From contig MFTH01000016.1 in the NCBI GenBank assembly GCA_001786765.1, forward strand, positions 21,666-85,665: a DNA stretch of 64,000 nt, in the 5' to 3' direction. Source of the stretch: Candidatus Nomurabacteria bacterium RIFCSPHIGHO2_01_FULL_37_25. GTDB lineage: Bacteria > Patescibacteriota > Minisyncoccia > Phycocordibacterales > UBA9973. The stretch's first letter is position 1. Every line of letters starts with the position of its first letter. The translations under genes and the position numbers were made by a program. The notes under the pieces were generated by a model, which was not told the DNA's origin, did not search any database, and saw only the letters and a list, made by a program, of their open reading frames with translations. Shown one piece after another: positions 1,561 to 56,194 of the stretch.

Positions 1561-2826
1561 CTAAAGTCTTAGATTGCCAGTTGCTTTGATGCTCTGTGGG
1601 TTTGGAGGAAACTTTCCCTGCCTGCCGGCAGGCAGGTTTTTGTTTTTTATATAATTCAAATATCCGGCGATGCCGATCATCAGAGAATTATCTCCCGCAA
1701 GTCCTTTCGCGGGGAATAGAATTTTGATTTTTTTGCCTGCAATTTTTTTCATTTCTCTTTGCAGATGTGTATTGCAAGCCACTCCGCCACCGACTATCAG
1801 GGTTTTTACGTTATATTTTTCTATAGCTTTTTTTGTTTTATACACAAGACATTCAATCGCGGCGTTTTCAAACTCCAGAGCTATTTCACTTTTTATTTTG
1901 TCGTCTACTTTTCCATCTGGCGCAATTTTTCTGATTAAATAGAGAACAGCTGTTTTTAATCCAGAAAAAGAAAAATTAAAATCTTTACTGTGAAGCATAG
2001 GGCGGGGGAGAGAAAAACTAGAGCTTTGCGAGAGGGAAGCATTGCGCAGGCCGACGGGCCGAGCATAGTAATCCCGCACCAGTGGGATATACGTGCTGAG
2101 TCCTCGCAAAGTTCTGGTTTTTCTCGTTTTCAAGAGTATGTTTCTTTGAAGTTCTGCTAATTTTGAGATCTCTGGCCCACCGGGGTAGGGAAGGTCAAGC
2201 ATTCTAGCTACTTTATCAAAAGCCTCGCCGACGGCATCGTCTAAACTTTCACCGATTATTTCATATTGCATCCATTTTTTTATTAATATGAGCTGTGTGT
2301 GTCCACCAGAAACCAAAAGCGCTAGTATTGGAAATTTTATTTTTGCTTGCCCGCCAGAGCCTTGGTGACGGAGGGGAATTTTAAATTTTCCCTTATTTTT
2401 TCCAAACACTGAAAGTGTGTGTCCTTCCATATGATTTACTGGGATTAAAGGCACGCCCCATTTTTGGGCTAAATTTTTCGCAAATAAAATACCTTCCCAA
2501 AGACACATTTCTAACCCCGGACCATAGGTAACGGCTATCAAATCCAACGGAGATTTTATGTTAACATTTTCTGCTATCGCTGAGTTTGTTAATATTGGTT
2601 TTATTTTAGCTTGCTTCAATGCTACTTCTAGTAAAATTGGCAGATTCTTAGCATGTTCTCGTTTTGCAAGCACAGGGTAGACTCCGCCATAAGGAATATG
2701 TATTTTTATCTGAGAATTTGAATTATTTGCCAAGACTTCAAAAGAAGCATTTGAAGCGCCTCCATTTGCTTTCATGATGCTTATAGCCGTGTCGTCGCAA
2801 CTTGTTTCAATGCTTAAAATTTTCAT
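1561..2826 (-). CDS. tsaD: tRNA N6-adenosine threonylcarbamoyltransferase TsaD (Kae1/YgjD family) with internal ~50-aa insertion and C-terminal extension
   Basis: MKILSIETSCDDTAISI..., metal-binding NHMEGH, GDNSLMIG near the C-terminus. It is 421 aa versus ~340 typical. The extra segment falls between ISKLAEL and FSLPRPM. Confidence 0.85.
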   Translation of the reverse strand: MKILSIETSCDDTAISIMKANGGASNASFEVLANNSNSQIKIHIPYGGVYPVLAKREHAKNLPILLEVALKQAKIKPILTNSAIAENVNIKSPLDLIAVTYGPGLEMCLWEGILFAKNLAQKWGVPLIPVNHMEGHTLSVFGKNKGKFKIPLRHQGSGGQAKIKFPILALLVSGGHTQLILIKKWMQYEIIGESLDDAVGEAFDKVARMLDLPYPGGPEISKLAELQRNILLKTRKTRTLRGLSTYIPLVRDYYARPVGLRNASLSQSSSFSLPRPMLHSKDFNFSFSGLKTAVLYLIRKIAPDGKVDDKIKSEIALEFENAAIECLVYKTKKAIEKYNVKTLIVGGGVACNTHLQREMKKIAGKKIKILFPAKGLAGDNSLMIGIAGYLNYIKNKNLPAGRQGKFPPNPQSIKATGNLRL

Positions 2827-5718: not shown

Positions 5719-5862
5719 AAATTACGAAACTTGTCGAAGGCATGTCTTTTTTAGGGGGTTTCGAGGCTGTCGAGCGCTGAACTTCAAGATTTTTCAAGGC
5801 TAATTTTTATTTGAAAAATCCGTACCCTAGAAAAAGACATGCCCAGAAAGAGTTTTGTAATT
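5719..5862. repeat. family-1 structured repeat, copy A (long form: outer stem + inner stem + core 5754-5827, core forward)
   Basis: Outer inverted repeat AAATTACGAAACT / AGTTTTGTAATT. Inner inverted repeat GGCATGTCTTTTTTAGGG / CCCTAGAAAAAGACATGCC. Core is GGGGGTTTCGAGGCTGTCGAGCGCTGAACTTCAAGATTTTTCAAGG...TTGAAAAATCCGTACCC. Confidence 0.85.
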
Positions 5863-7675: not shown

Positions 7676-7710
7676 CCTTCGGTCGCCGAAGCGACCTCAT
7701 AAATTACAAA

Positions 7711-7819
7711 ACTCATAAAATATCAATTTTTTCCGGTACGGATTTTTTGAAGGTTAAAAAATCCTGAAGTTTGCTCGCCGTCGCTCGCAAAACCCCTGCA
7801 AAAATTATATTTTATGAGT
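7711..7819. repeat. family-1 structured repeat, copy B (core 7734-7796, reverse orientation, divergent 5' half)
   Basis: Flanking inverted repeat ACTCATAAAATAT / ATATTTTATGAGT. Core is CGGTACGGATTTTTTGAAGGTTAAAAAATCCTGAAGTTTGCTCGCCGTCGCTCGCAAAACCCC. Confidence 0.8.
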
Positions 7820-7822
7820 TTC

Positions 7823-8848: not shown

Positions 8849-8878
8849 AATTTCATTATACACTATACATGGAATTTT

Positions 8879-8974
8879 AAAAATGTACTTTTGCAGGGGT
8901 TTCGAGGCTGTCGAGCCGAGAACTTCAGGATTTTTTAAGCTTCAAAAAATCCGTACCGGAAAAAGTACATTTTT
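8879..8974. repeat. family-1 structured repeat, copy C (core 8896-8958, forward). It fills the ftsZ-stop / trxB-start spacer.
   Basis: AAAAATGTACTTTT-gc-GGGGTTTCGAGGCTGTCGAGCCGAGAACTTCAGGATTTTTTAAGCTTCAAAAAATCCGTACCG-g-AAAAAGTACATTTTT. Confidence 0.85.
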
Positions 8975-8992
8975 AAAATTCTAGCCTGCTTT

Positions 8993-10183
8993 TTATTTCT
9001 TGCGTCTCAAAAATGCTGGAACAGCGCTCCAGTCATCACCATCATCTTCTATGATGATATCTTTTATAGGTTCTATTTTTTTGTCTGTTTTATTTATGAA
9101 ACTAACATTAACATTCCCATTTTTTATAGTGTTATTTATTTCTTTTTTTGCCAAAACCACATTCTCTTCTTTAAGTAGTATTTGATTAGAAGTTCCTGAT
9201 CCGCTAAAGAGATTTTGACGAGGAGCATCAGCAGGGAAGTTGGTAGCGATAACTGTAACTTTCAATTCACCCTTTTTCAATTTTTCATCACGAATTGTAC
9301 CGAAGATTACCTTCGCGTCTTTGTCGATTGACTCTGTGATTATTTTGGCCGCTTCTTGGATTTCATGAATAGCTAGGTCGTCTCCGCCAGAAATCGCAAA
9401 GAGCACGCCTTTAGCTCCGTGGATTGAAACTTCAAGGAGCGGAGAGTTAATAGCGGCTACAGCGGCTTTTTCAGCTCTTTTTTCACCTGAAGCGGTACCG
9501 ATACCCATAAGCGCGCTGCCAGCATCTTTCATTACAGCTTTAATATCCGCGAAATCAACATTGATGATGCCAGGAGTCGTGATAAGGTCTGAAATACCTT
9601 CCACAGCTTGGCGCAGAACATTGTCGCAATTAGCAAAAGCATCTTTAAAATTGGTATTTTTATCAGACAACTGAAGCAACTTATCATTTGGAATAACAAT
9701 AATCGCGTCCACTTCTTTAGATAATTCTTCGATGCCTTTTTCGGCCATTTTCATTCTGTGAGTTCCTTCAAAGAAAAAAGGTTTGGTGACGACAGCAACA
9801 GTGAGTATGCCTTGTTCTCTAGTCGCGCGAGCCACGATCGGAGCCGCGCCTGTGCCCGTGCCTCCACCCATTCCACAAGCAATAAAAACCATATCTGCCC
9901 CCTTGATAACATCTTGGATTTCAGATTTTGTTTCTTCAGCCGCTTTTTTCCCAACTTCTGGGTCCATGCCAGCGCCTAGACCTTTTGTAAGATTTTTCCC
10001 TATGTGAATTTTTTTCTCAGCCAGAGAATGATGCAGGTCTTGCGTGTCAGTATTCATACAGATAAAAGAGACTCCCTTGACCTTAGAATTTATCATATGG
10101 TTGATAGTGTTTTTACCTGATCCTCCTATTCCGACAACCATAATCCGAGCGAAACTCTCTATTTCTTGATTTATTTTTGGCAT
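8993..10183 (-). CDS. ftsZ: cell division GTPase FtsZ
   Basis: GGGTGTGAAPIVA tubulin signature. 396 aa. Confidence 0.95.
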   Translation of the reverse strand: MPKINQEIESFARIMVVGIGGSGKNTINHMINSKVKGVSFICMNTDTQDLHHSLAEKKIHIGKNLTKGLGAGMDPEVGKKAAEETKSEIQDVIKGADMVFIACGMGGGTGTGAAPIVARATREQGILTVAVVTKPFFFEGTHRMKMAEKGIEELSKEVDAIIVIPNDKLLQLSDKNTNFKDAFANCDNVLRQAVEGISDLITTPGIINVDFADIKAVMKDAGSALMGIGTASGEKRAEKAAVAAINSPLLEVSIHGAKGVLFAISGGDDLAIHEIQEAAKIITESIDKDAKVIFGTIRDEKLKKGELKVTVIATNFPADAPRQNLFSGSGTSNQILLKEENVVLAKKEINNTIKNGNVNVSFINKTDKKIEPIKDIIIEDDGDDWSAVPAFLRRKK

Positions 10184-12655: not shown

Positions 12656-14119
12656 ATGTCTTCAATTGATGAAATTAGAGATATTAGAATAAAAAAACTT
12701 GAGCTCTTAAAGAGTAGAGGTTTGAACCCGTATCCAGCGGAGTCAAACAGAGAGATTTCTTTGAAAGAGGCTATAGAGAATTTTGATAATCTAGAAAAAA
12801 CAAAAGATATGAAATGGATAGCAGGACGAGTTATGTCTATCCGCGGGCAAGGCGCGATTGTTTTTATAACACTAAATGACGGCACCGCTTCTTTTCAGGG
12901 TTTGTTTAAAAAAGATATTCTGGGTGATGATAAATTTAGTTTTTTTAACGAAGTAGTTGATATTGGTGATTTTATAGAAATCAAAGGAAGTTTTTTTGCA
13001 ACCCAAAGAAAAGAGAAAACACTAGAAGTCAAAGATTGGCGTATGCTCTCTAAAAGTTTGCGACCACTGCCAGAAAAGTGGCATGGACTCGTAGATGTGG
13101 AGGAAAGATTTAGAAAAAGGTATCTAGATATTTTAATGAATCCTGAATTAAAAGAACTTTTTGAAAAGAAGGCGAAGTTTTGGGAGGCGACTCGTAATTT
13201 TTTGAAAAAAGAAAATTTCCTAGAAGTTGAAACACCAACGCTTGAAATCACGACCGGTGGAGCAGAAGCCCGACCATTTAAAACTCATCATAATGATTTT
13301 GATATAGATGTTTATATGAGAATATCGGTGGGTGAGCTCTGGCAAAAGAGATTACTCGCGGCTGGTTTTCCTAGAGTTTTTGAAATTGGTAGAGTTTATA
13401 GAAACGAGGGATCAAGTCCGGAACATACCCAAGAATTTACCAGTATGGAATTTTACGCAGGGTATATGGATTACAAACAGGGAATTGAATTTACAGAAAA
13501 AATGATTAAAGAAGTTGTCATGGAAAGTTTTGGCACACTTGTTTTTGAAATACATGGACACAAAATTGATTTATCTAAAAAATGGGAACATATTCTTTAT
13601 GTTGATACAATAAAAGAAAACTCAGGTATTGATGTGCTATCGGTTACAGAAAAAGAAATGATGAAAAAACTAGATGAGCTTGGAGTGAAATATGAAGGCA
13701 CAAATAAAGAGCGTTTGACTGACTCGCTCTGGAAATATTGCCGAAAGCAAATAAAAGGACCGGTGTGGCTTATTGATGTGCCAAAACTTGTTTCTCCACT
13801 TTCAAAAATAAAACCAGAAAACCCACTACTCACTGAACGCGCGCAGCTCATCTTGGCGGGAGCGGAAATGACTAATGGATTTTCAGAATTAAATGATCCG
13901 ATAGATCAGAAGGAACGTTTTGAAGTGCAAAAGAAATTAATTGAAGGGGGAGATAAAGAAGCAATGATGCCAGATGATGAATTTGTGGAAATGTTGGAAC
14001 ACGGCATGCCTCCAGCTTTTGGTTTCGCTTATGGGGAGAGACTCTTTGCTTTTTTGGTAGATAAACCGCTCCGCGAGACGCAATTTTTTCCATTAATGAG
14101 ACCTTTAAATAAAGATTAA
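12656..14119 (+). CDS. lysS: lysyl-tRNA synthetase (class II)
   Basis: 487 aa. N-terminal OB fold. Class II motifs FRNEGSSPEHTQEFT..., GGAEARPF. Confidence 0.9.
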   Translation: MSSIDEIRDIRIKKLELLKSRGLNPYPAESNREISLKEAIENFDNLEKTKDMKWIAGRVMSIRGQGAIVFITLNDGTASFQGLFKKDILGDDKFSFFNEVVDIGDFIEIKGSFFATQRKEKTLEVKDWRMLSKSLRPLPEKWHGLVDVEERFRKRYLDILMNPELKELFEKKAKFWEATRNFLKKENFLEVETPTLEITTGGAEARPFKTHHNDFDIDVYMRISVGELWQKRLLAAGFPRVFEIGRVYRNEGSSPEHTQEFTSMEFYAGYMDYKQGIEFTEKMIKEVVMESFGTLVFEIHGHKIDLSKKWEHILYVDTIKENSGIDVLSVTEKEMMKKLDELGVKYEGTNKERLTDSLWKYCRKQIKGPVWLIDVPKLVSPLSKIKPENPLLTERAQLILAGAEMTNGFSELNDPIDQKERFEVQKKLIEGGDKEAMMPDDEFVEMLEHGMPPAFGFAYGERLFAFLVDKPLRETQFFPLMRPLNKD

Positions 14120-14202
14120 AAATATCTCATAAATAAAAAACTCAGGTAGTCATAGACTTCCTGAGCTGCTTTCGTCATCTTATATTAGATGACGAAATAA
14201 AT

Positions 14203-14279
14203 GGAGGGGGCACCCTACAACCTAGAGAAGGGGAATCTCTAGGTTTTTCCGTGGGAAATACGGTGCAGGGTACCCTCCC
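14203..14279 (+). ncRNA. candidate small structured RNA / structured leader (unknown class)
   Basis: Long-range helix GGAGGGGGCACCCT (14203-14216) / AGGGTACCCTCCC (14267-14279). It encloses hairpins CCTAGAG-aaggggaat-CTCTAGG (14221-14243) and CCGT-gggaaat-ACGG (14249-14263). It is preceded by hairpins at 14141-14165 and 14173-14194. Confidence 0.3.
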
Positions 14280-14306
14280 ACTTTCGATACTACAAAATCC
14301 AAACAA

Positions 14307-14331
14307 AAAGTAAAGAAAGTTGTCCACAGTT
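14307..14331 (+). repeat. 25-nt direct repeat copy 1 containing a DnaA-box-like 9-mer TTGTCCACA (second copy 14678-14702 with perfect TTATCCACA)
   Basis: AAAGTAAAGAAAGTTGTCCACAGTT versus AAAGTAAAGAAAGTTATCCACAGTT. The two copies are bracketed by inverted AATCCAAAC (14296-14304) and GTTTGGATT (14700-14708). Confidence 0.7.
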
Positions 14332-14745
14332 ATATTTTTAAAAATAAAAAATTCCCAAAAGGGAACCCTTCGGGAATTAGTGGTTTTATTTTAAAAAACC
14401 ACCGATTTTTGTTAGAGGCACCCAGAAGCCCGTTTAGGACAATTCCTAAACGGCGTGGTGCCTTGGATGCCTCTAATTTTTTTAATATACATAAAAATTA
14501 AAAAATCTCAAGCGCTTGTGGGCAACTCGAGACTTTCTCGTGACGTCGTAAACGACGCCGATTTTTTGCCGATAATCAAGTTCCTCCGCATCCCCCTTCA
14601 TCCAATCTTTCGATCAAATGAAGGGGGCGACTGAGGTAGTTGTGGTCGGCAAAGGAAGTATAAAACTAATAAATATAAAAGTAAAGAAAGTTATCCACAG
14701 TTTGGATTTGGTATTATTTTGTCTATGGAATACAATATATATCAG

Positions 14746-14767
14746 GTGGGAAAAAGTGGGAAAAGTG
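14746..14767 (+). promoter_or_regulatory. GTGGG direct repeats resembling MraZ-binding repeats in the mraZ promoter
   Basis: GTGGGaaaaaGTGGGaaaaGTG. Three 5-nt-spaced repeats lie ~70 nt upstream of mraZ, as described for MraZ autoregulation in other bacteria. Confidence 0.45.
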
Positions 14768-14779
14768 TTAATAAAGTAA

Positions 14780-14820
14780 TCCCGACGTAAAGTCGGGACC
14801 CCGACCTAAAAGCGTCGGGG
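14780..14820. repeat. tandem CCCGAC/GTCGGG hairpin pair upstream of mraZ
   Basis: TCCCGAC-gtaaa-GTCGGGA then CCCCGAC-ctaaaagc-GTCGGGG. Confidence 0.8.
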
Positions 14821-14834
14821 TTTAGAAAAAAAAT

Positions 14835-15272
14835 ATGCTTATCGGAGAATATATACATACGATTGATGAAAAAAACAGAGTTTCAATACCGGTAAAGTTT
14901 CGCAAAGAGCTCGGTAAGAAAATTATTATCACACCTGGACTTGGTCAATGTTTGTTCATTTTTACAATTAAAGAATGGGAAAAGGTAAGCAAGAAACTTT
15001 CTGATTCGGATTCTGATTTATCTTTTTTGAAAGCTGATCAAAGAAGTTTTAACAGATATATGTTTGGAAGAGCGGTGGAAATAGAGTTTGATTCGATCGG
15101 CCGAATATTAATTCCTGATTTTCTGAAAGATAGAATCGGACTTGCGAATTCCGCGGCAATTGTCGGAGTAAAAGACAGAGTGGAAGTATGGAGTGAGAAA
15201 GCATGGTCGGAGCAAAAAGAAATCGTGGAAAAGCAGGCGGAACAGTTGGCGGAGAAGTTGGGAAGTTCCTAA
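14835..15272 (+). CDS. mraZ: transcriptional regulator MraZ
   Basis: MLIGEYIHTIDEKNRVSIPVKFRKEL... A duplicated SpoVT/AbrB-like fold. First gene of the dcw block. Confidence 0.85.
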   Translation: MLIGEYIHTIDEKNRVSIPVKFRKELGKKIIITPGLGQCLFIFTIKEWEKVSKKLSDSDSDLSFLKADQRSFNRYMFGRAVEIEFDSIGRILIPDFLKDRIGLANSAAIVGVKDRVEVWSEKAWSEQKEIVEKQAEQLAEKLGSS

Positions 15273-15276
15273 AAAC

Positions 15277-15362
15277 ATAACTTTTTTCGGTACGAATTTT
15301 TCGAAGCTTGAAAAATTCTGAAGTTCTCGGCTCGTCAGCCTCGAAACCCCTGCAAAAGTTAT
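15277..15362. repeat. family-1 structured repeat, copy D (core 15288-15350, reverse)
   Basis: ATAACTTTT...CGGTACGAATTTTTCGAAGCTTGAAAAATTCTGAAGTTCTCGGCTCGTCAGCCTCGAAACCCC...AAAAGTTAT. Confidence 0.85.
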
Positions 15363-15384
15363 TTTTTAGAAACTTCAAAAATAT

Positions 15385-16329
15385 ATGCACAGGACAGTTC
15401 TTTTAAATGAAGTTATAGATGGGTTGAATTTAGGCTCCGGTTCCATCGTCGTAGATGCAACATTTGGCGGCGGAGGGCATAGTCTGGAGATTTGTAAAAG
15501 ATATCCGAGTGTGAGGATAATTGCCTTAGATCAAGATCAAAGTGCTCTCGAAAAAGCCAAAAGTAAATTCAAAGATTCAAATTGTGATGTTACTTTTATA
15601 AATGCGAATTTTAGAGACCTAGATAGGGTGAACTTGGGAAATTTAAGCGTCGTGGGTTCCCTGTCCTCTGGTCTCCGAGGGCGAAGGCGCAAAAATTTTC
15701 CAAGTTCACCCGTAGACGGAATCATTTTTGATTTAGGTTTGAGTTCTGACCAGTTGGAGAATTCTGGACGAGGATTTTCTTTTCAAAAAGATGAACCACT
15801 TTTAATGACTATGAAAGAGAATCCAACTTCCGGAGATGTTACAGCGAAAGATGTTGTAAACACTTGGGGAGAAGATAGTTTAGCCGATATTATTTACGGT
15901 TATGGTGAAGAAAAGCAAGCTCGCAGAATCGCTAAAAGAATAGTGGAATTTAGGAAAAAACAGGAAATTAAAACCACCTTTGATTTGGTAAAAGTAATAG
16001 AAGAGGCGATTCCAGCCAAGTTTCGTAAAGGCAAAATCCATTATGCCACTAAAACTTTTCAGGCAATAAGGATAGCGGTAAATGATGAGTTGGGAGCGCT
16101 TGCCGAGGGTTTGGATAAAGGTTTTAAGTTATTGAAGGTAGGAGGGAGGATGTCGGTGATTTCTTTCCATAGTTTAGAGGACAGGATAGTAAAGAGATTT
16201 TTTAAGAAAAAAGCGGAAGAAAATTTAGCAAAGTTAATTAATAAAAAACCCATTATTGCTAAATTAGAAGAAATAAAAAATAATCCGAGGTCAAGAAGCG
16301 CAAAATTAAGAATTTTATCCCGACGCTAA
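15385..16329 (+). CDS. rsmH: 16S rRNA (cytosine1402-N4)-methyltransferase RsmH, carrying an in-frame ~80-nt repeat insertion
   Basis: VVDATFGGGGHS, VDGIIFDLGLSSDQL, SFHSLEDRIVK. Extra segment NLSVVGSLSSGLRGRRRKNFP relative to RsmH homologues. Confidence 0.9.
   Translation: MHRTVLLNEVIDGLNLGSGSIVVDATFGGGGHSLEICKRYPSVRIIALDQDQSALEKAKSKFKDSNCDVTFINANFRDLDRVNLGNLSVVGSLSSGLRGRRRKNFPSSPVDGIIFDLGLSSDQLENSGRGFSFQKDEPLLMTMKENPTSGDVTAKDVVNTWGEDSLADIIYGYGEEKQARRIAKRIVEFRKKQEIKTTFDLVKVIEEAIPAKFRKGKIHYATKTFQAIRIAVNDELGALAEGLDKGFKLLKVGGRMSVISFHSLEDRIVKRFFKKKAEENLAKLINKKPIIAKLEEIKNNPRSRSAKLRILSRR
15626..15711. repeat. family-2 hairpin element inserted in-frame in rsmH
   Basis: GGGTGAACTTGG-gAAATTTAAGCGTCGTGGGTTCCCTGTCCTCTGGTCTCCGAGGGCGAAGGCGCAAAAATTTT-CCAAGTTCACCC. 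The core is shared with 24905-24970. Confidence 0.85.
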
Positions 16330-18517: not shown

Positions 18518-18524
18518 TAATGAA

Positions 18525-18644
18525 TCCCGTTAGAGATATGATGGTTTTTCAGAAAAAATGAAAGAGAATATAACAATATGATTAAAGTTTTAATTAAAAG
18601 TAATGTAATTACGGAAATCTAAAGATTTCCTATCTCTAACGGGA
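18525..18644. mobile_element. TIR-bounded element, copy 1 (TIR TCCCGTTAGAGATA / TATCTCTAACGGGA); the right TIR abuts the murF ATG
   Basis: Perfect 14-bp terminal inverted repeats enclose 92 nt of AT-rich sequence. The same TIR is at 41105-41183. Confidence 0.7.
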
Positions 18645-19993
18645 TGAAGACAATTCTTAAAAAAATAATAGCTTACATACTACAGATAGAATCACGCCTG
18701 GTAATTTTTAGATATAAACCGAAGATTGTCGCTATTACCGGCTCGGTCGGCAAGACTTCCACTAAGGATGCAGTTTATGCAGTTCTCTCCGGAATGTCGC
18801 ATGTTCGCAAAAGTGAGAAAAGCTATAATAGCGAAATAGGATTGCCACTGACTATTTTAGGTATTCCAAATGGATGGAATAATCCTCTGGTGTGGGTTCA
18901 AAATATTTGGAAAGGTCTTTGGCTTTTTCTTAGTCCTTTTGGGCCTCACAAATATCCCAAATGGCTTGTCCTCGAAGTCGGTGTAGGCAAGCCGGGTGAT
19001 ATGCGTCGCACAGCTTCTTGGTTTAAAACTGATGCGGTTATCATCACTGCCATCAGCGAGACTCCGGCTCATATTGAATTTTTTAATTCCCGAAAAGACC
19101 TTATAAAAGAAAAAAGCGAGCTCATAAAAACTTTAAAACCAGATGGCATTTTAATATTAAATGCTGATGACGAGGACGTGCTCTCTATGAGAAACCAAAG
19201 TAAGACTAAAGATAAGCATCGCGCTATAACTTATGGATTTACAGAAGGCGCTGATGTTTTGGCATCTCAAGATAGTATTTTTTATGGTGATTTAGGTGAA
19301 CCTCGAGGAATAACTTTTAGAATAGATGAGAGGGGGAATAGTCTACCTGTAATTACAGAAGGTGTATTTGGCAGAAATCATGTCTATGCTTCTCTCGGAG
19401 CTTTAGCTTTTTCTTCAATTTTGAAATTTAATATGCTGGATGCGGTGAATTCGCTAAAAAATTATGATGTTGCGCCAGGGCGTATGCGATTGCTAAATGG
19501 TATTAACGGAACTTTGATTATTGATGATACTTATAACTCTTCTCCTTTTGCTTGTGAATCCGCGCTTAAAACTTTAGGAGAAGTAAAATGTTTGGGGAGG
19601 AAAATTGCTATTTTGGGCGATATGCTTGAATTAGGTAAATACACAGAAGAAGCTCATAAAAATATCGGCAAGATAGCTAAAGAAAATTGTGATGTTTTGG
19701 TAGTGGTGGGTCATAGAGCGCAAGCTATAAAGTCTGGTGCTCTGGAAGCAGGGATGAATAATGCGAATATTTTTGAATTTTTAGATTCATATCAAGCTCA
19801 CGAATTTGTAAAAACTTTTGTGCGGGCAGGCCCGCCTGCTCCTGACGAAGGAGGGCGGGCAGGGGACTTGGTGCTCGTAAAAGGTTCTCAAGGTATGCGT
19901 ATGGAGCGTGTGGTAGAGGCGATACTTTTTGATAAAGAAAATAAAGAAAAACTACTGGTTCGTCAAGACAAAGAATGGTTGAAGAAAAAATAA
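18644..19993 (+). CDS. murF: UDP-N-acetylmuramoyl-tripeptide--D-alanyl-D-alanine ligase with a GC-rich hairpin insertion near the C-terminus
   Basis: ITGSVGKTSTK P-loop, Mur ligase domains. Extra RAGPPAPDEGGRAG before LVLVKGSQG. Confidence 0.85.
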   Translation: MKTILKKIIAYILQIESRLVIFRYKPKIVAITGSVGKTSTKDAVYAVLSGMSHVRKSEKSYNSEIGLPLTILGIPNGWNNPLVWVQNIWKGLWLFLSPFGPHKYPKWLVLEVGVGKPGDMRRTASWFKTDAVIITAISETPAHIEFFNSRKDLIKEKSELIKTLKPDGILILNADDEDVLSMRNQSKTKDKHRAITYGFTEGADVLASQDSIFYGDLGEPRGITFRIDERGNSLPVITEGVFGRNHVYASLGALAFSSILKFNMLDAVNSLKNYDVAPGRMRLLNGINGTLIIDDTYNSSPFACESALKTLGEVKCLGRKIAILGDMLELGKYTEEAHKNIGKIAKENCDVLVVVGHRAQAIKSGALEAGMNNANIFEFLDSYQAHEFVKTFVRAGPPAPDEGGRAGDLVLVKGSQGMRMERVVEAILFDKENKEKLLVRQDKEWLKKK

Positions 19994-23308: not shown

Positions 23309-23435
23309 ACTTGGCTATTTTAGCATAATTTTGTTATACTAGACAGGAAAATGTTGTTTTAGAAAGCCTTGCGCAGGAGCTTAGAAAATAAAAGCGGTAC
23401 TCCGATTATTATTTTCTTGAGCGACGAGCAGTTCG

Positions 23436-23453
23436 CTGGCAAAGCTTTGCCAG
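23436..23453. promoter_or_regulatory. 18-bp perfect palindrome CTGGCAAAGCTTTGCCAG in the divergent exonuclease/yqeY promoter region
   Basis: A perfect dyad ~38 nt upstream of the yqeY ATG. Candidate operator. Confidence 0.4.
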
Positions 23454-23490
23454 ACAGATTGCTTTATAAAATAATATTTTCCTGTGTTTT

Positions 23491-23940
23491 ATGCTACACG
23501 AACAAATTAAAAATGGAATAAAAGAAGCGATGATGGCAAAGGATGCTTTGCGTTTGAAAGCTTTTAGAGCAATGTCGGCCGCATTTACAAATGAACTCGT
23601 CGCTAAAGGCAGGAAACCGCAAGATATGCTTACTGACGAGGAGGCGATAGCTGTGATTGCGAAACTTGCAAAGCAACGTAACGATTCTATTGTTCAGTTT
23701 AGAAAGGGTGGCAGAGAGGATTTGGTAAAAGAAGAATCAGCAGAGCTTTCGATTCTAAAAACGTATTTACCAGAAATGATGAATAAAAGTGAGGTTGAAA
23801 AAATAGCTCGCGCTAAAAAAAGCGAATTGGGTATTACAGATGCTACTAAAAAAGGAATGCTTATGTCGGCAGTTATGAAGGATTTAAAAGGCAAAGCGGA
23901 TGGTAATTTAGTGAAAGAAGTCATAGATTCACTCTTTTGA
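23491..23940 (+). CDS. yqeY: GatB/YqeY domain protein
   Basis: 149 aa, colinear with the YqeY family (MLHEQIKNGIKEAMMAKDALRL...). Confidence 0.8.
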   Translation: MLHEQIKNGIKEAMMAKDALRLKAFRAMSAAFTNELVAKGRKPQDMLTDEEAIAVIAKLAKQRNDSIVQFRKGGREDLVKEESAELSILKTYLPEMMNKSEVEKIARAKKSELGITDATKKGMLMSAVMKDLKGKADGNLVKEVIDSLF

Positions 23941-23993: not shown

Positions 23994-24893
23994 ATGAAAA
24001 AATTAAGCAAAAAATTAGTAACGCACGATGGATCTTTTCAATCAGATGATATTTTCGCGGCCGCGACGCTTGCTATTTTTCTTGAAAAAGCTGGAGAGAC
24101 TTTTGAAATAATAAGAACTCGAAATCCTGAAATCATTAATACTGGCGATTATGTTTTTGACGTAGGTGGAATATATGATGAAGCTATAAACAGATTTGAT
24201 CATCATCAAATAGGCGGGGCGGGCAAAGGTTTGGACAATATAGACTATGCCGCTTTTGGTTTAGTTTGGAAAAAATTTGGAAAAATAGTTGCTGGGAGTG
24301 AAAAGGTGGCAGGACTTATAAATAAACGTTTAGTTACCCCAATTGATGCTTGGGATAACGGTTTTGATTTGGTTCTTAATAAATATAATGTAACGCCGTA
24401 TTATGTGCAGCACTTTTTTTTGTCGATGGTGCCGACTTGGAGAGAAGAGAATATAACCAACGATGAAATGTTTCTAAAAAGCGTAGAGATTGCAAAAGAG
24501 ATTTTGTTACGGGAAATAATTCATGCGCAGGACTTGCTTTTAGCAGATGAAAAAGTTCTTTCTATATATAACAATACTAAAGACAAACGAATAATTATTT
24601 TAGATAAAAATTATCCTTATGAATATACTCTAACTAATTTCTCTGAACCCCTTTTTGTAATCTATCCCAGAATTAATGACAATTTGTGGGGAGTGAAAGC
24701 CGTTAGGAAAAATCCAAAATCTTTTAGTAATAGAAAAGACTTCCCAAAATCGTGGGCCGGATTGCGAGACGATGAATTGCAAAAAACCAGCGGAGTGTCG
24801 GATGCTGTATTTTGTCACCGAGGATTATTTATGGCTGTAGCCAAATCAAAAGAAGGAGCTATGAAATTAGCTCAAATTGCTGTAAAATCATAG
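23994..24893 (+). CDS. MYG1/UPF0160 family metal-dependent hydrolase
   Basis: THDGSFQSDDIFAAA and FDHH motifs characteristic of MYG1. Confidence 0.75.
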   Translation: MKKLSKKLVTHDGSFQSDDIFAAATLAIFLEKAGETFEIIRTRNPEIINTGDYVFDVGGIYDEAINRFDHHQIGGAGKGLDNIDYAAFGLVWKKFGKIVAGSEKVAGLINKRLVTPIDAWDNGFDLVLNKYNVTPYYVQHFFLSMVPTWREENITNDEMFLKSVEIAKEILLREIIHAQDLLLADEKVLSIYNNTKDKRIIILDKNYPYEYTLTNFSEPLFVIYPRINDNLWGVKAVRKNPKSFSNRKDFPKSWAGLRDDELQKTSGVSDAVFCHRGLFMAVAKSKEGAMKLAQIAVKS

Positions 24894-24981
24894 ACTATGA
24901 GAATGAAAAATTTAAGCGTCGTGGGTTCCCTGTCCTTATGACCTCGAGGGCGAAGGCGCAAGAATTTTTTATTCTCATAGT
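24894..24981. repeat. family-2 hairpin element, intergenic copy (between the MYG1 gene and obg)
   Basis: ACTATGAGAAT-gaaAAATTTAAGCGTCGTGGGTTCCCTGTCCTTATGACCTCGAGGGCGAAGGCGCAAGAATTTTtt-ATTCTCATAGT. The 11-bp flanking inverted repeat differs from the rsmH copy. Confidence 0.85.
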
Positions 24982-24995
24982 CTGTACTATATATC

Positions 24996-25988
24996 ATGGC
25001 ATTCATCGATGAAATAAAAATATATGCGGAAGCCGGCCGAGGCGGGAACGGTGTCGTGCGTTGGCATAGACAGAAGTTTGAACCGAAGGGTGGTCCTGCG
25101 GGTGGAAATGCTGGCCGAGGCGGGGATTTTTATATAAAAGCTGTCCGTGATGCGCACATACTTTCCAAATATAAAGCAAAAAAAATTTTCATTGCCGATA
25201 AGGGGGAAGATGGCGGAAGCAAAAGTTTGCATGGTAAAAACGGAGAAGATTTTATTTTGGAATTGCCGATAGGTTCTGTAATTACGAATATTGAAACTGA
25301 TGAAAAATGGCAATTGATGAAAGAAGGGGAGAAGATTTTACTTTTAAAAGGGGGATATGGCGGTTTTGGAAATGAACATTTCAAAAGCTCATTAAATACG
25401 ACACCCAAAGAGTCCAGAGAGGGAGGGGTCGGGGAAAATGGAAATTTCAAAATAGAGTTAGAACTTTTTGCCGATATTGGATTTATTGGACTTCCAAATG
25501 CGGGAAAATCTTCTTTGCTTAATGCGCTTACAAACGCAGAAGCGAAAGTCGGAAATTATGCTTTCACGACACTCGATCCAAATTTGGGAGACTTTTTTGG
25601 TTTTATCATTGCTGATATTCCGGGAATCATTGAAGGAGCATCTTCCGGCAAAGGTCTCGGTATAAAATTCTTGCGTCATATCAAACGAACCAAAATGCTT
25701 GCGCATTTAGTATCTTTTGAAAATCCTAATATGTTGAAAAGTTATAAAGAGGTTCGTAAAGAATTGGCAAAATATGATACAAATTTAGATTTGGGCGGGG
25801 ATGGTCTGTCTCTAAAAGAAGAAATAATTATTTTAACAAAAACTGACATAGTAGATGATCCGAAAATTATCGCAAAAAAAGTTTCCGACTTTAAAAAGAT
25901 TAGTAAAAATGTTTTTGCCTTGTCTTTATTTGATGACAAAACGGTAAAGAAGTTTCAAGATTCATTGGTCAAGATTTTAAAAAAGTAG
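24996..25988 (+). CDS. obg: GTPase Obg/CgtA
   Basis: MAFIDEIKIYAEAGRGGNGVVRWHRQKF (Obg fold). G-domain GLPNAGKSSLL, DIPG. Confidence 0.9.
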   Translation: MAFIDEIKIYAEAGRGGNGVVRWHRQKFEPKGGPAGGNAGRGGDFYIKAVRDAHILSKYKAKKIFIADKGEDGGSKSLHGKNGEDFILELPIGSVITNIETDEKWQLMKEGEKILLLKGGYGGFGNEHFKSSLNTTPKESREGGVGENGNFKIELELFADIGFIGLPNAGKSSLLNALTNAEAKVGNYAFTTLDPNLGDFFGFIIADIPGIIEGASSGKGLGIKFLRHIKRTKMLAHLVSFENPNMLKSYKEVRKELAKYDTNLDLGGDGLSLKEEIIILTKTDIVDDPKIIAKKVSDFKKISKNVFALSLFDDKTVKKFQDSLVKILKK

Positions 25989-28871: not shown

Positions 28872-30581
28872 ATGTTAGGAAAAATGAAAGATGAAATTAA
28901 AAAATTTTTTAAAGGAGATGTGGAAGATGGAGAAGAAACACTTTCAAAATATTCACGGGATGCGAGTATTTTTAAAGTGAAACCCAAGCTCGTTCTTTTC
29001 CCAAAAGATTCGGAAGATGTAAAAAAATTAGTGAAATGGGTTTCTGAAAATAAAGATAAGTACGCAGATATTGAAAGAAATAAAGACTGGAAAAATCTTT
29101 CCATTACTTCTAGATGCGCGGGGACAGATATGTCTGGAGGCGCCATAGGAGAATCTTTAATTTTAGATTTTACAAAATATATGAATAAGTTAATAAGATG
29201 GAGTCAGGATGTGAAGAATTCTTCACATCCTGACTCCATTACTGTGCAGCCTGGTATGTTTTATAGAGATTTTGAAAAATTAACTTTAGAAAAAGGACTT
29301 ATTTTACCTTGTTACACAGCCTCCAAAAGTATAAATGCGATGGGGGGAATGTTTGGTAACAATTCTGCCGGCGAGAGAACGCTGAAATATGGTAAAACTG
29401 AAGATTATATTTTAGAAACTAAAATAGTTTTTTCTGATGGGATTGAAAGAATTGTAAAACCTATTTCTTTGAACGACATTTCTAAGCAAGGAGAAATTTA
29501 TAAAAATATTTATAATTTAATTAAAAATAATAAAGAGGAGATAGAATTCGCGAAACCCAAAGTGCACAAAAACTCGGCTGGTTATTATATATGGAATGTT
29601 ATTCAAAAGAATGTTTTTGATATGAATAAATTGCTTGTTGGTTCGCAGGGAACTTTAGGTATTGCCACAGAGATAACTTTTAAACTGGTACCGGAAAATA
29701 AACATTCAAAACTAGTTGCTATTTTTATGAAAAATCTAGAACCGCTTGGTCGTTTAGTAGATGAAATTTTAACGCTTAACCCTGAAACACTTGAAGCCTA
29801 TGATGACAAAACGATGAAATTAGCCGTCAGATTTTTCCCGGATTTTTTAAAAAATAAAGGATTTTTTGGGATGATTAAATTTATATGGAGTTTTTTACCA
29901 GAATTTTTCTTGATGGCCACAGGAGGTTTTCCTAAATTAATTCTTCTGGCTGAATTTGCAGGCGGAGATGAAGTGGAGATAAATAAACAATGTATAAAAC
30001 TTAGAGAGAAAATCAAAAATTTTAAATTAAAAATTCACATTACTAAATCTGAAATGGAAGCAAATAAATATTGGGATATTAGAAGAGAGAGTTTTGCATT
30101 ACTTCGAAAGCACATAAAAGGCAAGAGCACTGCTCCATTTATAGATGATATTATTGTCCGTCCAGAATTTCTGCCAAAATTTCTTCCAGAACTTAATGTT
30201 ATTTTAAATAAATATGATCTAACTTACACAATCGCTGGACATGCGGGAGAAGGGAATTTTCATGTTATTCCATTGATGGATTTTAAACGTTCTGATACGG
30301 CAAAAATAATAATGGAACTTTCGGAGAAAGTATATAACTTAGTGATAAAATATCATGGTTCGATTACGGCTGAACACAATGATGGCATAATTCGCACTCC
30401 ATATTTAGAAAAGATGTACGGGCAAAAGATGATTAAAATCTTCAGTGAGATTAAGGAAATTTTTGATTCTAAAAATATTTTTAATCCTGGGAAAAAAGTC
30501 GCAATAGCTTCTGTGGGTGGTACTAAGGAATATATGGTGACCCATATTGCAGTAGAACATGATGTAAATCATAAAGTTTAA
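28872..30581 (+). CDS. FAD-linked oxidase (GlcD/D-lactate dehydrogenase-like)
   Basis: FAD-binding PCMH domain (RCAGTDMSGGAIG). C-terminal FAD-oxidase domain. 569 aa. Confidence 0.7.
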   Translation: MLGKMKDEIKKFFKGDVEDGEETLSKYSRDASIFKVKPKLVLFPKDSEDVKKLVKWVSENKDKYADIERNKDWKNLSITSRCAGTDMSGGAIGESLILDFTKYMNKLIRWSQDVKNSSHPDSITVQPGMFYRDFEKLTLEKGLILPCYTASKSINAMGGMFGNNSAGERTLKYGKTEDYILETKIVFSDGIERIVKPISLNDISKQGEIYKNIYNLIKNNKEEIEFAKPKVHKNSAGYYIWNVIQKNVFDMNKLLVGSQGTLGIATEITFKLVPENKHSKLVAIFMKNLEPLGRLVDEILTLNPETLEAYDDKTMKLAVRFFPDFLKNKGFFGMIKFIWSFLPEFFLMATGGFPKLILLAEFAGGDEVEINKQCIKLREKIKNFKLKIHITKSEMEANKYWDIRRESFALLRKHIKGKSTAPFIDDIIVRPEFLPKFLPELNVILNKYDLTYTIAGHAGEGNFHVIPLMDFKRSDTAKIIMELSEKVYNLVIKYHGSITAEHNDGIIRTPYLEKMYGQKMIKIFSEIKEIFDSKNIFNPGKKVAIASVGGTKEYMVTHIAVEHDVNHKV

Positions 30582-45039: not shown

Positions 45040-45112
45040 TTATTTATTTTTTAATTGTTAATATCTTTATTATAGCATCTTTTTGTATTATGCTATAATA
45101 GCTATAGCAACT

Positions 45113-45251
45113 TTGAATTACGAAACTCTTTCTAGGCATGTCTTTTTCTAGGGTACGGATTTTTTTAAGTTTAAAAAATCCTGAAGTTCTCGGCTCGACA
45201 GCCTCGAAACCCCCTAAAAAAGACATGCCTTCGACGAGTTTCGTAATTCAA
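45113..45251. repeat. family-1 structured repeat, copy E (long form, core 45151-45224 reverse)
   Basis: Outer inverted repeat TTGAATTACGAAACTC / GAGTTTCGTAATTCAA. Inner inverted repeat CTAGGCATGTCTTTTTCTAGG / CCTAAAAAAGACATGCC. Both stems are shared with copy A. Confidence 0.85.
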
Positions 45252-45329
45252 AGTTATAAAATTTAATTTGCTTGTTTGGTCGTTCAAGCAAAGTATTGTA
45301 TTTATTAAATATTTTTAAAGTATAAACAT

Positions 45330-45646: not shown

Positions 45647-46891
45647 ATGGTTTTAATTCCAAACATAATATTTTATGTGTTAATCTTTTTGTCTGTCTAC
45701 GCGCAGGTCTTTTTTCTTGTTACATTTTTTGAAAATAGAAAAAAAATAGTTATTAGAAATGGAAAAACTAAGCTTAATAAATATGAAACAGTAACCATTG
45801 TTGTGCCGTGCTGGAATGAAGAGAGTACTGTTTATAAAACAATACGCTCGCTTCTCGCCTTAAATTATCCGCAAGATAAATTAAAAATTTTACTCATTGA
45901 TGATGGTTCTACTGATGGCACTTGGAATATAATTCGTAAGTTTAAAAAATATCCAAATATAAAAATCTTTCAAAAAGAAAATGGTGGCAAATATACAGCT
46001 CTAAATTTAGGATTAAAACATTCAGAGACAAGTTTTTTTGGGGCCTTAGACGCAGATACCTTGGCCGATCCGGAGTCCCTGATTCGCATTATGAGTTATT
46101 TTGAAAAAGACAAGAGTATTATGGCTGTTGTTCCTTCAGTTGTTGTCTATAATCCAAAGAATTTAATTCAAAATGCTCAAAAAGCCGAATACCATATGGG
46201 CGTTTATACGAAGAAAATGCTTAGTTTCTTGGGGGCTATTAATGTGACTCCAGGACCTCTCACGATCTTTCGGAGAAAAGTTTTTGACGATTTGGGACCT
46301 TATCGACACGGACACAATACAGAGGATATGGAAATTGCTTACAGAATGCAAAAAAATAATTGTAAAATAGAACACTGTAATGACGCTTTCGTTTATACTA
46401 ATACACCGAACACAATTATCAAATTATACAAGCAAAGACTGCGTTGGATTTACGGTTTTATAAATAATACAATTGATTATCGTGATGTTTTGTTGAAAAA
46501 AAAATATGGGAACTTTTCTCTATTTATTCTACCAACAGGTGTTGTCTCTATTCTTGCCATAAGTTACCTTTTTGGCAGGCTAGTTTATAGTTCAATTAAT
46601 TTTATTTATCTGAAGTTTATTACTTTCAATACCATAGGATGGAATTTGTCTTTTAAAAGTTACAACTTTGATCTTTTTTTTATAGATACTAGTTCATATG
46701 TATTTTTAGTTTTTTTGATTTATCTTTTGGTTATTTTTGGAATAGTTTTTGGAAGAAGAATGTCAGAAGGGAAATGGGTTTTGTCTTTTAATATGATTTA
46801 TTTTTTAATAGTTTTTCGTTTTCTTGCTCCATTTTGGTTTTTAAAGGCAATTTATAGTACTATTTTAAAGAGGAAGCCTGCCTGGAGATGA
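45647..46891 (+). CDS. family 2 glycosyltransferase, processive-type membrane enzyme
   Basis: LIDDGSTDGT, DADT, QRLRW (QxxRW) motif. Multiple TM helices. Confidence 0.75.
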   Translation: MVLIPNIIFYVLIFLSVYAQVFFLVTFFENRKKIVIRNGKTKLNKYETVTIVVPCWNEESTVYKTIRSLLALNYPQDKLKILLIDDGSTDGTWNIIRKFKKYPNIKIFQKENGGKYTALNLGLKHSETSFFGALDADTLADPESLIRIMSYFEKDKSIMAVVPSVVVYNPKNLIQNAQKAEYHMGVYTKKMLSFLGAINVTPGPLTIFRRKVFDDLGPYRHGHNTEDMEIAYRMQKNNCKIEHCNDAFVYTNTPNTIIKLYKQRLRWIYGFINNTIDYRDVLLKKKYGNFSLFILPTGVVSILAISYLFGRLVYSSINFIYLKFITFNTIGWNLSFKSYNFDLFFIDTSSYVFLVFLIYLLVIFGIVFGRRMSEGKWVLSFNMIYFLIVFRFLAPFWFLKAIYSTILKRKPAWR

Positions 46892-46913
46892 TTACTAAAA
46901 TAACACTTAATTC

Positions 46914-47582
46914 ATGATTGATTGGAAGAAATATTTAATTGTATTTTTTATTACTGCCGGTCTTTTTTTAACGGCAGGTTATTTTAGTAATTATCTCGGC
47001 AATAAAAAAATTGATCAAATAAAATCAATACAAGATCAAATTGCCATAAATATTCTTTCTTCAGAAACACAGTTTTCATTACTTCAAGAACTCTCCTGTA
47101 ATAATGTATCAGCATCTATACTTTCTGATGAACTTGATGATATTGGCAATAAGCTCGAATGGGGACAGAAAAATTTGGGTTCGATAGATGAGGTTTCTTA
47201 TTTAAAAAAATACTATTCATTGCTTCAGATTAAAGATTACTTATTAATGAAAAAAATATCTGCGAGCTGTAAAATAAAGTCTGCCTTTATTCTTTATTTT
47301 TATACTACAGCTGAAAACTGCAGTGAATGTGAACGAGAGAGTATAGTCCTTTCAGAACTTCGTGAAAAATATCCAGAACTTCGTGTCTATTCTTTTGATT
47401 ATAGTACGGATCTTTCTGTGGTCAAAGCCTTGCTTAAAATTTATAAAATAAAGGATACAGAACTTCCGGCTCTTGTCTTAGGAGACGAACTCTTGACGGG
47501 CTTCCATAGTATTGATGAACTTGACGCAAAAGTCCAAAAGTCTTTCAAGCTTCAGGAAACAAAATCAAATGGAAATACATAA
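46914..47582 (+). CDS. hypothetical membrane-anchored protein
   Basis: N-terminal TM helix, CSEC motif. No family assigned. Confidence 0.3.
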   Translation: MIDWKKYLIVFFITAGLFLTAGYFSNYLGNKKIDQIKSIQDQIAINILSSETQFSLLQELSCNNVSASILSDELDDIGNKLEWGQKNLGSIDEVSYLKKYYSLLQIKDYLLMKKISASCKIKSAFILYFYTTAENCSECERESIVLSELREKYPELRVYSFDYSTDLSVVKALLKIYKIKDTELPALVLGDELLTGFHSIDELDAKVQKSFKLQETKSNGNT

Positions 47583-48361: not shown

Positions 48362-48396
48362 AATTACTAACTCAGATACAATATCATATTACTTCG

Positions 48397-48523
48397 AATT
48401 ATGAAACTCAAAAATATAACTTTATGCAGGGGTTTCGAGGCTGACGAGCCGAGAACTTCAAGATTTTTTAAGCTTCAAAAAATCTGTACCGGAAGAAAGT
48501 TGATATTTTTGAGTTTCATAATT
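48397..48523. repeat. family-1 structured repeat, copy F (core 48429-48492 forward) inside a 21-bp perfect outer stem
   Basis: AATTATGAAACTCAAAAATAT...GGGGTTTCGAGGCTGACGAGCCGAGAACTTCAAGATTTTTTAAGCTTCAAAAAATCTGTACCGG...ATATTTTTGAGTTTCATAATT. Confidence 0.85.
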
Positions 48524-48535
48524 CATAAATATTAT

Positions 48536-55712: not shown

Positions 55713-56194
55713 TGGTCCTGCATTGGATAGCTACTATTACCCGCCTTCGCTTAGGCTATGGCGTGGTGATAGAGGAAAGTCCGAACACAGACCAGTTCTT
55801 TTTTAAAAGAGTTGGTAGCATGGTAGTGGGTAACGCCCACATATAGCAATATATAGGTGCGAGCAGAGACGTCTTAATTCGAAAGAATTAAGATATCCAG
55901 TAATGGATAAATCTTTATATAAACTCAGGGCTTGCCCTGAGCGAAGTCGAAGGGTGAAACGGCTAAATCCTTACCTCTGTGCAAGATCGTGCCCCGCCCT
56001 CTTGAGTGCTGAACTTTATGTTTGCAATATATTTAGTCAGATATTTTGTAACGTTGAATTGAAAAAGTTTATATTGAGCACTCAAGAGGGCGGGGAGAAT
56101 CGCTTGAGCCCGAGAGTAATCGAGGGCCTAGATAAATTGCTATCTATTTTGTTTTAACAAAATACACAAAATTCGGCTTATAGATGCAAGACCA
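55713..56194 (+). ncRNA. rnpB: RNase P RNA (bacterial type A-like) with an unusually long 19-bp helix insertion
   Basis: P4 5' strand GAGGAAAGTCCGAAC (55772) pairs with the 3' strand TTCGGCTTA (56172), keeping the conserved bulged U. GGGTAACGCC and AGGGTGAAACGG motifs. The P18 region GCTTGAGCC...GGCCTAGATAAAT closely parallels E. coli GCUUGAGCC...GGCCUAGAUGAAU. P1 is TGGTCCTGCAT / ATGCAAGACCA. GNRA hairpin CTTAATTC-gaaa-GAATTAAG. Confidence 0.65.

Follow-up and report, generated by a model that had tools for sequence, protein, structure and literature searches.

The 64,000-nucleotide (nt) stretch analysed here (the window: positions 21,666 to 85,665 of contig MFTH01000016.1 from Candidatus Nomurabacteria bacterium RIFCSPHIGHO2_01_FULL_37_25) carries on its minus strand, at 1561-2826, a tsaD gene that contains a structured DNA element at 2010-2125 within an intact reading frame. 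The gene, taken from the list of open reading frames (ORFs), encodes a 421-amino acid (aa) product, the tRNA t6A37 threonylcarbamoyltransferase subunit. This product exceeded the curated cut-offs of both PF00814 (3.9e-74, 250 bits; cut-off 24.8) and TIGR03723 (324 bits; cut-off 296), matched TsaD chains in the PDB at ~1e-60, and contained the conserved HMEGH metal-binding motif as VNHMEGH at residues 130-136. Both profile matches broke at residues ~228 and ~270, and in the alignment with E. coli TsaD residues 225-267 of the window protein stood in place of four residues.

A preliminary description of this DNA, made from the letters alone, had pointed to a GC-enriched segment flanked by a perfect 9-bp inverted repeat, CTTTGCGAG (2024-2032) and CTCGCAAAG (2103-2111). 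The repeat is exact, occurs once in the window and in 0 of 100 shuffles, and proved to be the inner part of longer arms at 2010-2032 and 2103-2125, each of 23 nt and 91% complementary, which enclose a 70-nt core with 60% GC; both arm mismatches are G-U wobbles on the plus strand. GC content was 0.61 over 2001-2080 versus ~0.37 in the surroundings. Folding of the plus strand, antisense to tsaD, gave -66.5 kcal/mol (z = -8.5) and that of the minus strand -50.3 kcal/mol (z = -5.6), and the element is the most stable 120-nt fold of the entire window. The two internal hairpins already described, GGCC-GACG-GGCC at 2049-2060 (P2) and ATCCC-GCACCAGT-GGGAT at 2071-2088 (P3), were both found on the plus strand. 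The element is free of stop codons in frames +1, -1 and -2, and corresponds to residues ~234-272 of the predicted protein. Next to it, at 2125-2148 (minus strand), lies a likely remnant left arm of a second element, encoding ...LQRNILLK.... In tsaD of the relative L084 a W-type element adjoins a C-type element, the type of the window copy, and the remnant is ~85% identical to the left arm of that W-type element; the equivalent of 2125-2148 in most relatives reads AEELRxKxKQ.

The profile breaks, the E. coli alignment and the comparison with orthologues bear out the earlier view of the segment as a structured insertion relative to canonical TsaD, bounded by inverted repeats. Its size had been put at about 50 extra residues; we found ~33-39, with ~35-39 contributed by the element and the remnant arm together, and the segment from GGP to PRPM spans 60 aa in window TsaD versus 21-30 aa in insert-free orthologues. 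The insert peptide is rich in Arg, Lys and Ser, and the peptides encoded over 2010-2125 include TLRGLSTYIPLVR and DYYARPVGLR. AlphaFold, run with the orthologue alignment, gave a confident fold of window TsaD (mean predicted local distance difference test score, pLDDT, 85.4; predicted template modelling score, pTM, 0.86) in which residues 246-267 had a pLDDT below 50 and residues 241-284 were modelled as coil; by this prediction the insert is probably a disordered loop of TsaD. An intein was considered and rejected, with an insert of ~39 aa versus a splicing domain of at least ~130 aa, no intein motifs, and Pfam matches to TsaD and HypF_C_2 only.

Occupancy of the tsaD site among orthologues

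Window TsaD was aligned with the 120 orthologues closest to it, proteins of 349-440 aa that are Nomurabacteria/Parcubacteria-type and 60-97% identical. The length from GGPxISKLA to LPRPM was 21-30 aa in 21 of these 121 proteins, 40-65 aa in 93 and at least 80 aa in 6, and the number of elements at the site was none, one and two, respectively. The elements belong to several sub-types and lie in both orientations. Because the sub-types differ, and orientation and reading frame vary even for the same DNA, the peptides at this site are unrelated, as in REGSIAQAGEPSI..., ...ARPVGLRNAS..., GVSQADGPRGSA... and SLSPRARGALPLGSSACE.... The plus-strand translation of the window element, REGSIAQADGPSIVIPHQWDIRAESSQSSGF, is essentially the sense-frame peptide of relatives such as P0003. 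Since the arms are palindromic, either orientation yields identical flanking residues, RKTR.LR ... SQSS.FS. The preliminary description had named conserved amino acids without a palindromic signal in relatives as the outcome that would speak against it; the reverse was observed, with the palindromic signal retained and the amino acids not conserved. It had overlooked the occurrence of both orientations at one site.

The nucleotide sequences of nine relatives were compared at the site. L081, L082 and L084 have the C-type element in the sense orientation; the window and L086, the latter from another sample, have it in antisense. The A-type elements of L087 (sense) and L088 (antisense) are 96.7% identical over 61 nt, in host genes that are 77% identical. 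At the tsaD site the A-type was counted 21 times in sense and 10 times in antisense (A+ and A-). The tsaD genes of L082 and L084 each contain two elements in tandem. In the three insert-free alleles (L090-L092) the site holds either a native inverted repeat of short length or the remnant of an arm, a right-arm remnant being retained in L091, and the nominally insert-free tsaD of L213 (10001-11146) has a small hairpin, TCCCGTACACCAGGTGTCCGGGA, which resembles P3 of the window and is probably a deletion remnant.

The nearest neighbour by TsaD sequence shared the element type in 25 of 121 cases, compared with a permutation mean of 13.3; the occupant type hardly follows TsaD relatedness. Orthologues that are 91-97% identical outside the variable sites differed in their occupants (A+ versus G, A+ versus E, E versus none). 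The elements are polymorphic in presence and absence, as known for mobile repeats, the tsaD site being empty, singly or doubly occupied and a site downstream of ftsZ filled or empty. Patterns back-translated from the TsaD alignment and searched in a genome collection returned only TsaD loci, at 33-44% identity and mostly outside the Candidate Phyla Radiation (CPR); these patterns were too generic.

A repeat family with a conserved three-way junction

No second exact or near-exact copy of the element was found in the window with blastn-short, and its relatives were recognised only by a shared motif and a covariance model. The family signature GGCYGNCGRGCCGAG, which contains P2, occurs five times exactly in the window against 0.16 expected. 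The preliminary description had missed the multi-copy nature of the segment, whose family has copies between genes of the window and in-frame within other housekeeping genes. The window holds many elements of 90-160 nt bounded by inverted repeats, among them six intergenic copies of a type designated T1, with the common core GCAGGGGTTTCGAGGCTGNCGAGCCGAGAACTTCAGGATTTTTT...AAAAAATCCGTACCGG and differing long outer stems. A metagenome scan with the longer motif CGCAGGCYGRCGRGCCGAG gave 119 loci; ~99 copies lay in low-GC contigs, only five of those in tsaD, and nearly all of the ~99 had the same architecture.

A covariance model, R1, was trained on 12 C-type copies from other metagenome contigs, containing neither a tsaD copy nor any window sequence. 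It detected the core of the tsaD element at 2038-2097 on the plus strand with 63.7 bits (E ~4e-17), placing the element in the family, and scored tsaD-site elements of relatives (C, A in both orientations, W and D) at 37.6-73.7 bits. Four of the T1 copies were detected as well, at 22.9-39.5 bits: 8872-8981 (plus strand, downstream of ftsZ; 27.1 bits), 48396-48524 (plus; 22.9 bits), 45109-45255 (minus; 39.5 bits), which has the complete conserved outer module (GAATTACGAAACTCGTCGAAGG...), and 15270-15372 (minus, between mraZ and rsmH; 24.3 bits). The other two lie at 7709-7821 (minus), with a diverged P2 hairpin, and at 5720-5862 (plus), where P2 is degenerate and the copy is paralogous to 45109-45255. 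A third sub-type of the family, AGAAAGCCTTGCGCAGG...CAGTTCGCTGGC...GCCAGACAGATTGCTTTAT, at 23336-23492, went undetected by R1; it is frequent among the metagenome loci, and in the window its P2 is enlarged by an extra AT-rich hairpin of ~45 nt.

The common fold is a long stem that closes a three-way junction. Among 93 distinct copies, in an alignment fitted to the model, 92.7% of cells were paired versus 61.7% in shuffles, compensatory double changes occurred at 23 of 24 pairs, including all nine pairs of P3, and the covariation score was 0.747 versus 0.208 in shuffles and at most 0.16 in slid controls. The letters of the P3 stem in the window element are unlike those of other copies, with pairing maintained. 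In P2 the pyrimidine/purine positions covary (UA 48, CG 42). The stretch CUGACGAG in P2 resembles the CUGANGA of a hammerhead ribozyme, which was rejected, as its U/C position covaries as a stem and Rfam gave nothing. An outer module, GAATTACGAAACTCGTCG.../...GAGTTTCGTAATTC, is common to a subset of copies at a constant spacing of ~103 nt; the outer stems of the tsaD copy and most others are locus-specific. Rfam at gathering scores returned only five tRNAs for the whole window, and permissive scans of 1900-2250 and 8850-9000 gave just sub-threshold generic hairpin or microRNA models. Viral contigs yielded a single match, a chance one in a GC-rich contig.

For 38 of the 99 copies a stop-free ORF of 150 aa or more runs across the element, some of these ORFs being probably spurious. 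In-frame hosts confirmed with Pfam are RecG (three organisms), UvrD (three), Dus (two, with a third copy at the same site), one class I aminoacyl-tRNA synthetase (aaRS) and Fmt. Within one host gene the site is constant across organisms and the sub-type or orientation varies. The family thus combines intergenic copies with in-frame copies in several unrelated genes whose ORFs are preserved. A 50-aa composite peptide query from the translated A-type element retrieved only seven tiny ORFs and was uninformative. As to the hosts themselves, UvrD of L159 (3588-6755, minus strand) carries an intein together with the in-frame repeat element, and the class I aaRS of L161 (6571-10302, minus strand) has an internal histidine-phosphatase domain besides the element.

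The window and L214 both have the T1 copy downstream of ftsZ, in the same relative orientation, and its outer stems are wholly different in the two yet complementary in each. The syntenic L213 lacks this copy, and the empty site has a 9-mer in common with the filled one.

The C-terminal palindrome and other features of the window

The preliminary description had also singled out a perfect 20-bp palindrome near the 3' end of tsaD, read as a C-terminal extension created by a terminator-like hairpin. The palindrome CCTGCCTGCCGGCAGGCAGG at 1617-1636, encoding residues 397-404 (NLPAGRQG), is indeed perfect (10+10) and is followed by TTTTTGTTTTTT with its T-run; the palindrome pattern was found in 0 of 100 shuffles. 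It is absent from L086. Between ~3378 and 1637 this contig matches the window at 100% identity, and beyond 1637 the identity falls to ~70%. In the alignment with L086 tsaD four additional bases at approximately 1601-1610 (minus strand), where gap placement is ambiguous, restore the frame, so that the window has 20 + 4 = 24 nt, or eight codons, more than L086. The final ...IKATGNLRL and the position of the stop codon are conserved in relatives, and in several of these the spot of the palindrome is taken by a related palindromic insert, such as NLPAQAGK. The palindrome is an internal, strain-variable insertion of hairpin sequence and not an extension of the tail; in general kind this second insertion would resemble the main element, on a smaller scale, with the four further bases keeping the frame. 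AlphaFold placed this stretch in coil with a pLDDT of ~62. The palindrome possibly marks a recombination boundary. Its likeness to a terminator holds only for the plus strand, antisense to tsaD, and arises because the palindrome adjoins a native A-run encoding Lys/Asn; an intrinsic terminator was rejected, as the hairpin and T-run lie inside the minus-strand tsaD and no plus-strand gene ends there.

TsaD alone contains four variable sites. Besides the two described, residues 75-94 (2545-2604) form another lineage-variable insertion site, the surrounding segment measuring 19-62 aa among orthologues, and residues 152-161 (2344-2373) hold a 10-aa insert, LRHQGSGGQA, of a length seen in ~9 of 121 sequences. 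The class I tRNA synthetase encoded downstream of tsaD varies in length among relatives (703-750 aa; L082-L092, L213, L214), and in L081 (3780-5836) it is split into two ORFs; this size range and the split suggest further insertions or a frameshift there.

A second family, designated X-type, with the core AAGCGTCGTGGGTTCCCTGTCC...GAGGGCGAAGGCGCAA, is represented at 15626-15711, in-frame in rsmH/mraW (15385-16329, plus strand), where it adds ~20 residues to the 16S rRNA methyltransferase RsmH relative to the solved structures 1m6y and 1wg8. Its intergenic paralogue, 87.5% identical over a 48-nt core, lies at 24892-24983 between the ORF at 23994-24893 and obg (24996-25988). A perfect, spacer-free palindrome of 42 nt (21+21) at 29198-29239 is in-frame in a 569-aa ORF (28872-30581, plus strand) and is read ...RWSQDVKNSSHPDSI.... 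Further long inverted-repeat elements occur between genes at 55992-56095, 18524-18645 and 46885-46997, with arms of 18-22 nt and 60-86 nt between them; their AT-rich interiors are unrelated to the tsaD repeat family. Three of the window's most stable folds fall in a region of ~700 nt without ORFs at 14120-14834, which separates a 487-aa ORF (12656-14119) from another ORF (14835-15272). The flanking ORFs are, by synteny with L090, probably a class II tRNA synthetase and mraZ. No Rfam match was obtained for this region even at permissive thresholds and no transfer-messenger RNA was found; it may be an unrecognised structured RNA.

Origin and maintenance of the elements

In our assessment the tsaD segment is quite probably a copy of an in-frame palindromic repeat family of Patescibacteria, translated as a passenger. 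The family would consist of small (~100-150 nt), GC-enriched repeats with a long stem closing a conserved three-way junction, whose copies would be gained, lost, exchanged and inverted, the majority of them between genes. Copies would survive in essential genes if they fall in a tolerant surface loop, have a length that is a multiple of three and are free of stop codons, and would then simply be translated, the peptide being a by-product and not what selection favours. In the window an antisense C-type copy would occupy the TsaD loop between GGPxISKLA and LPRPM, next to the remnant arm of another. The family membership of this copy, the conserved fold, the in-frame occupancy of many genes in both orientations and the turnover between close relatives are the observations behind this explanation, and we infer that the elements are selfish or mobile. 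Candidate movers are an enzyme that recognises single-stranded hairpins, and template switching or recombination between hairpin arms.

Several points weigh against a passenger repeat. In flanks of up to 10 kb we found neither a transposase nor a target-site duplication nor an autonomous parent element, which is weak evidence; all left and right end pairs are ~103 nt apart and none flanks an ORF, and no target-site duplication was visible at the junctions examined. The ten ORFs flanking window copies, to which the Pfam scan of neighbours was confined, are ordinary housekeeping genes or had no match. Most copies have locus-specific outer stems rather than common terminal repeats, which is atypical for MITEs, the miniature transposable elements with inverted repeats. 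Cores are 92-100% identical between genomes whose tsaD genes are only 72-82% identical at the nucleotide level, and the copy downstream of ftsZ holds its position and orientation in distant relatives despite a replaced outer stem; both fit purifying selection on a function as well as or better than purely selfish spread. G-U wobbles are favoured on the core-sense strand in outer-stem mismatches (36 versus 10, counted over copies that are not independent), which hints at a strand-specific single-stranded form. Translation of the insert, finally, is read solely from the intact frame.

As an alternative, the elements could be functional structured nucleic acids, RNA or single-stranded DNA, kept by selection, with the tsaD copy acting as a cis- or antisense element; they might serve as small RNA genes in multiple copies, as protein binding sites, or as marks for processing, termination or replication. 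Besides the core identity, the G-U preference in outer stems and the ftsZ copy, this alternative draws on the strong covariation and on a core pair at alignment columns 129/209 that shows the same strand preference (GU 24, UG 0). We nevertheless regard it as possible but rather unlikely. Orientation to the host gene is mixed, both at the tsaD site and between genes, which makes a role in the host mRNA unlikely; the occupant changes or vanishes between orthologues 91-97% identical; Rfam families gave no match; and no promoter-like site was found on the plus strand near the tsaD element. The alternative overlaps with the passenger repeat, in that a domesticated repeat would fit both, and elements of selfish origin could also have a structure with a selected function. 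A bolder proposal, which we hold with less conviction still, is that the repeats are phylum-wide, structure-specific elements whose three-way junction of one polarity, as single-stranded DNA or RNA, is recognised by a machinery and kept under purifying selection. They may home to hairpin-prone sites, including loops of tsaD, recG, uvrD, dus, an aaRS and fmt, their cores may be swapped like cassettes with the orientation flipped, and the core may be kept because the activity needs it exact or through host use such as transcript or replication punctuation. If true, this would be a new mode of targeted spread, transposase-free or dependent on an HUH-type single-strand nuclease, with a direct part in creating new protein segments in CPR bacteria.

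It seems very improbable that the segment was selected for its peptide, for instance as a basic loop contacting tRNA or TsaB/TsaE. Some insert is present at this loop in 100 of 121 sequences and the window peptide is rich in basic residues and Ser, but the peptides are unrelated readings of the same DNA, 21 orthologues have no insert, the region is predicted as low-confidence coil, and conservation lies at the level of nucleotides and structure, not of amino acids. Slightly less credible still is an intervening sequence, a mini-intron, ribozyme or intein-like element that would be lost ahead of protein synthesis. Such an origin would suit a GC-rich block that is compact and highly structured and lies within an essential gene, and CPR bacteria are known to carry introns in their rRNA genes; however, both orientations occur in the same gene, the element is always in-frame and stop-free wherever a full-length ORF was called, and ribozyme and intron families gave no match. 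The faintest of these prospects is that assembly or sequencing produced the feature artificially, for instance through a chimeric join at a palindrome. The abrupt divergence of window and L086 exactly at the 20-nt palindrome could reflect a join of strains in one assembly, but the main element is identical in the independent sample L086, homologous elements occur in more than 100 independent contigs, and several other relatives have related palindromic inserts at the C-terminal site.

Among known systems the closest parallel to the proposed passenger repeat appears to be the Rickettsia palindromic elements (RPEs; Ogata et al. 2000, summarised in PMC10969869), a likeness of behaviour and not of sequence, as the phylum is another and a sequence relation is not expected. 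RPEs are likewise palindromic repeats of ~100-150 bp in a small AT-rich genome, lie between genes and, unusually often, in-frame within unrelated housekeeping genes, and preserve the ORF, the additional peptide being apparently tolerated by the fold. Unlike them, the tsaD family has a three-way junction core that is 92-100% identical across species, mostly locus-specific outer stems, and a tsaD loop whose occupants vary in sub-type and orientation, can stand in tandem, and turn over between close relatives.

Repetitive extragenic palindromic sequences (REPs), including bacterial interspersed mosaic elements and the GTAG- and CGTC-tagged classes (PMC3733652), are also multi-copy palindromic repeats found mostly downstream of genes, and the CGTC class is without a known dedicated transposase. 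Some REP copies lie within coding regions, and Di Nocera et al. (2013, PMC3733652) noted intragenic REPs in genes for replication and repair, as here in recG and uvrD. A REP, however, is a single hairpin of 20-40 bp with a terminal tetranucleotide tag, whereas the family described here has a 70-nt three-way junction with an outer stem of 10-40 bp; identity with GTAG/CGTC-tagged REPs was rejected for this misfit of architecture, and no terminal tag was seen on reading copies. Bacterial MITEs with translatable ORFs (ERIC, BOX, Correia, Nezha and others; PMC10969869) are similarly small, non-autonomous, hairpin-forming and multi-copy, are polymorphic in presence and absence, and give in-frame fusions now and then. 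The tsaD family differs from them in that conserved terminal repeats (GAATTACGAAAC...) occur in only a subset of copies and that neither target-site duplication nor parent insertion sequence was seen. Coding palindromes in nematomorph (Nematomorpha) mitochondria (PMC6649704) are stable inverted repeats in functional genes of AT-rich reduced genomes, with both structure and coding capacity kept. They are organellar, and both of their arms encode conserved protein regions rather than an inserted loop. Yeast mitochondrial GC clusters, GC-rich hairpin elements in mitochondrial genes, offer another organellar parallel. A search of a literature library for MITEs or palindromic repeats in Patescibacteria, Parcubacteria or the CPR found nothing relevant, and the family is apparently undescribed in Patescibacteria so far.

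The passenger repeat would provide a DNA-level cause for some of the lineage-specific insertions in conserved proteins of Patescibacteria, and inserts of this sort can distort annotation, alignment, phylogeny and structure prediction. Together with the RPEs it would point to translated hairpin repeats being linked in general with small, AT-rich genomes. The contrast between exceptionally conserved cores and locus-specific stems poses a mechanistic puzzle. The tsaD loop, with unrelated peptides from strain to strain, amounts to a natural experiment on how essential enzymes tolerate, and may recruit, new segments.

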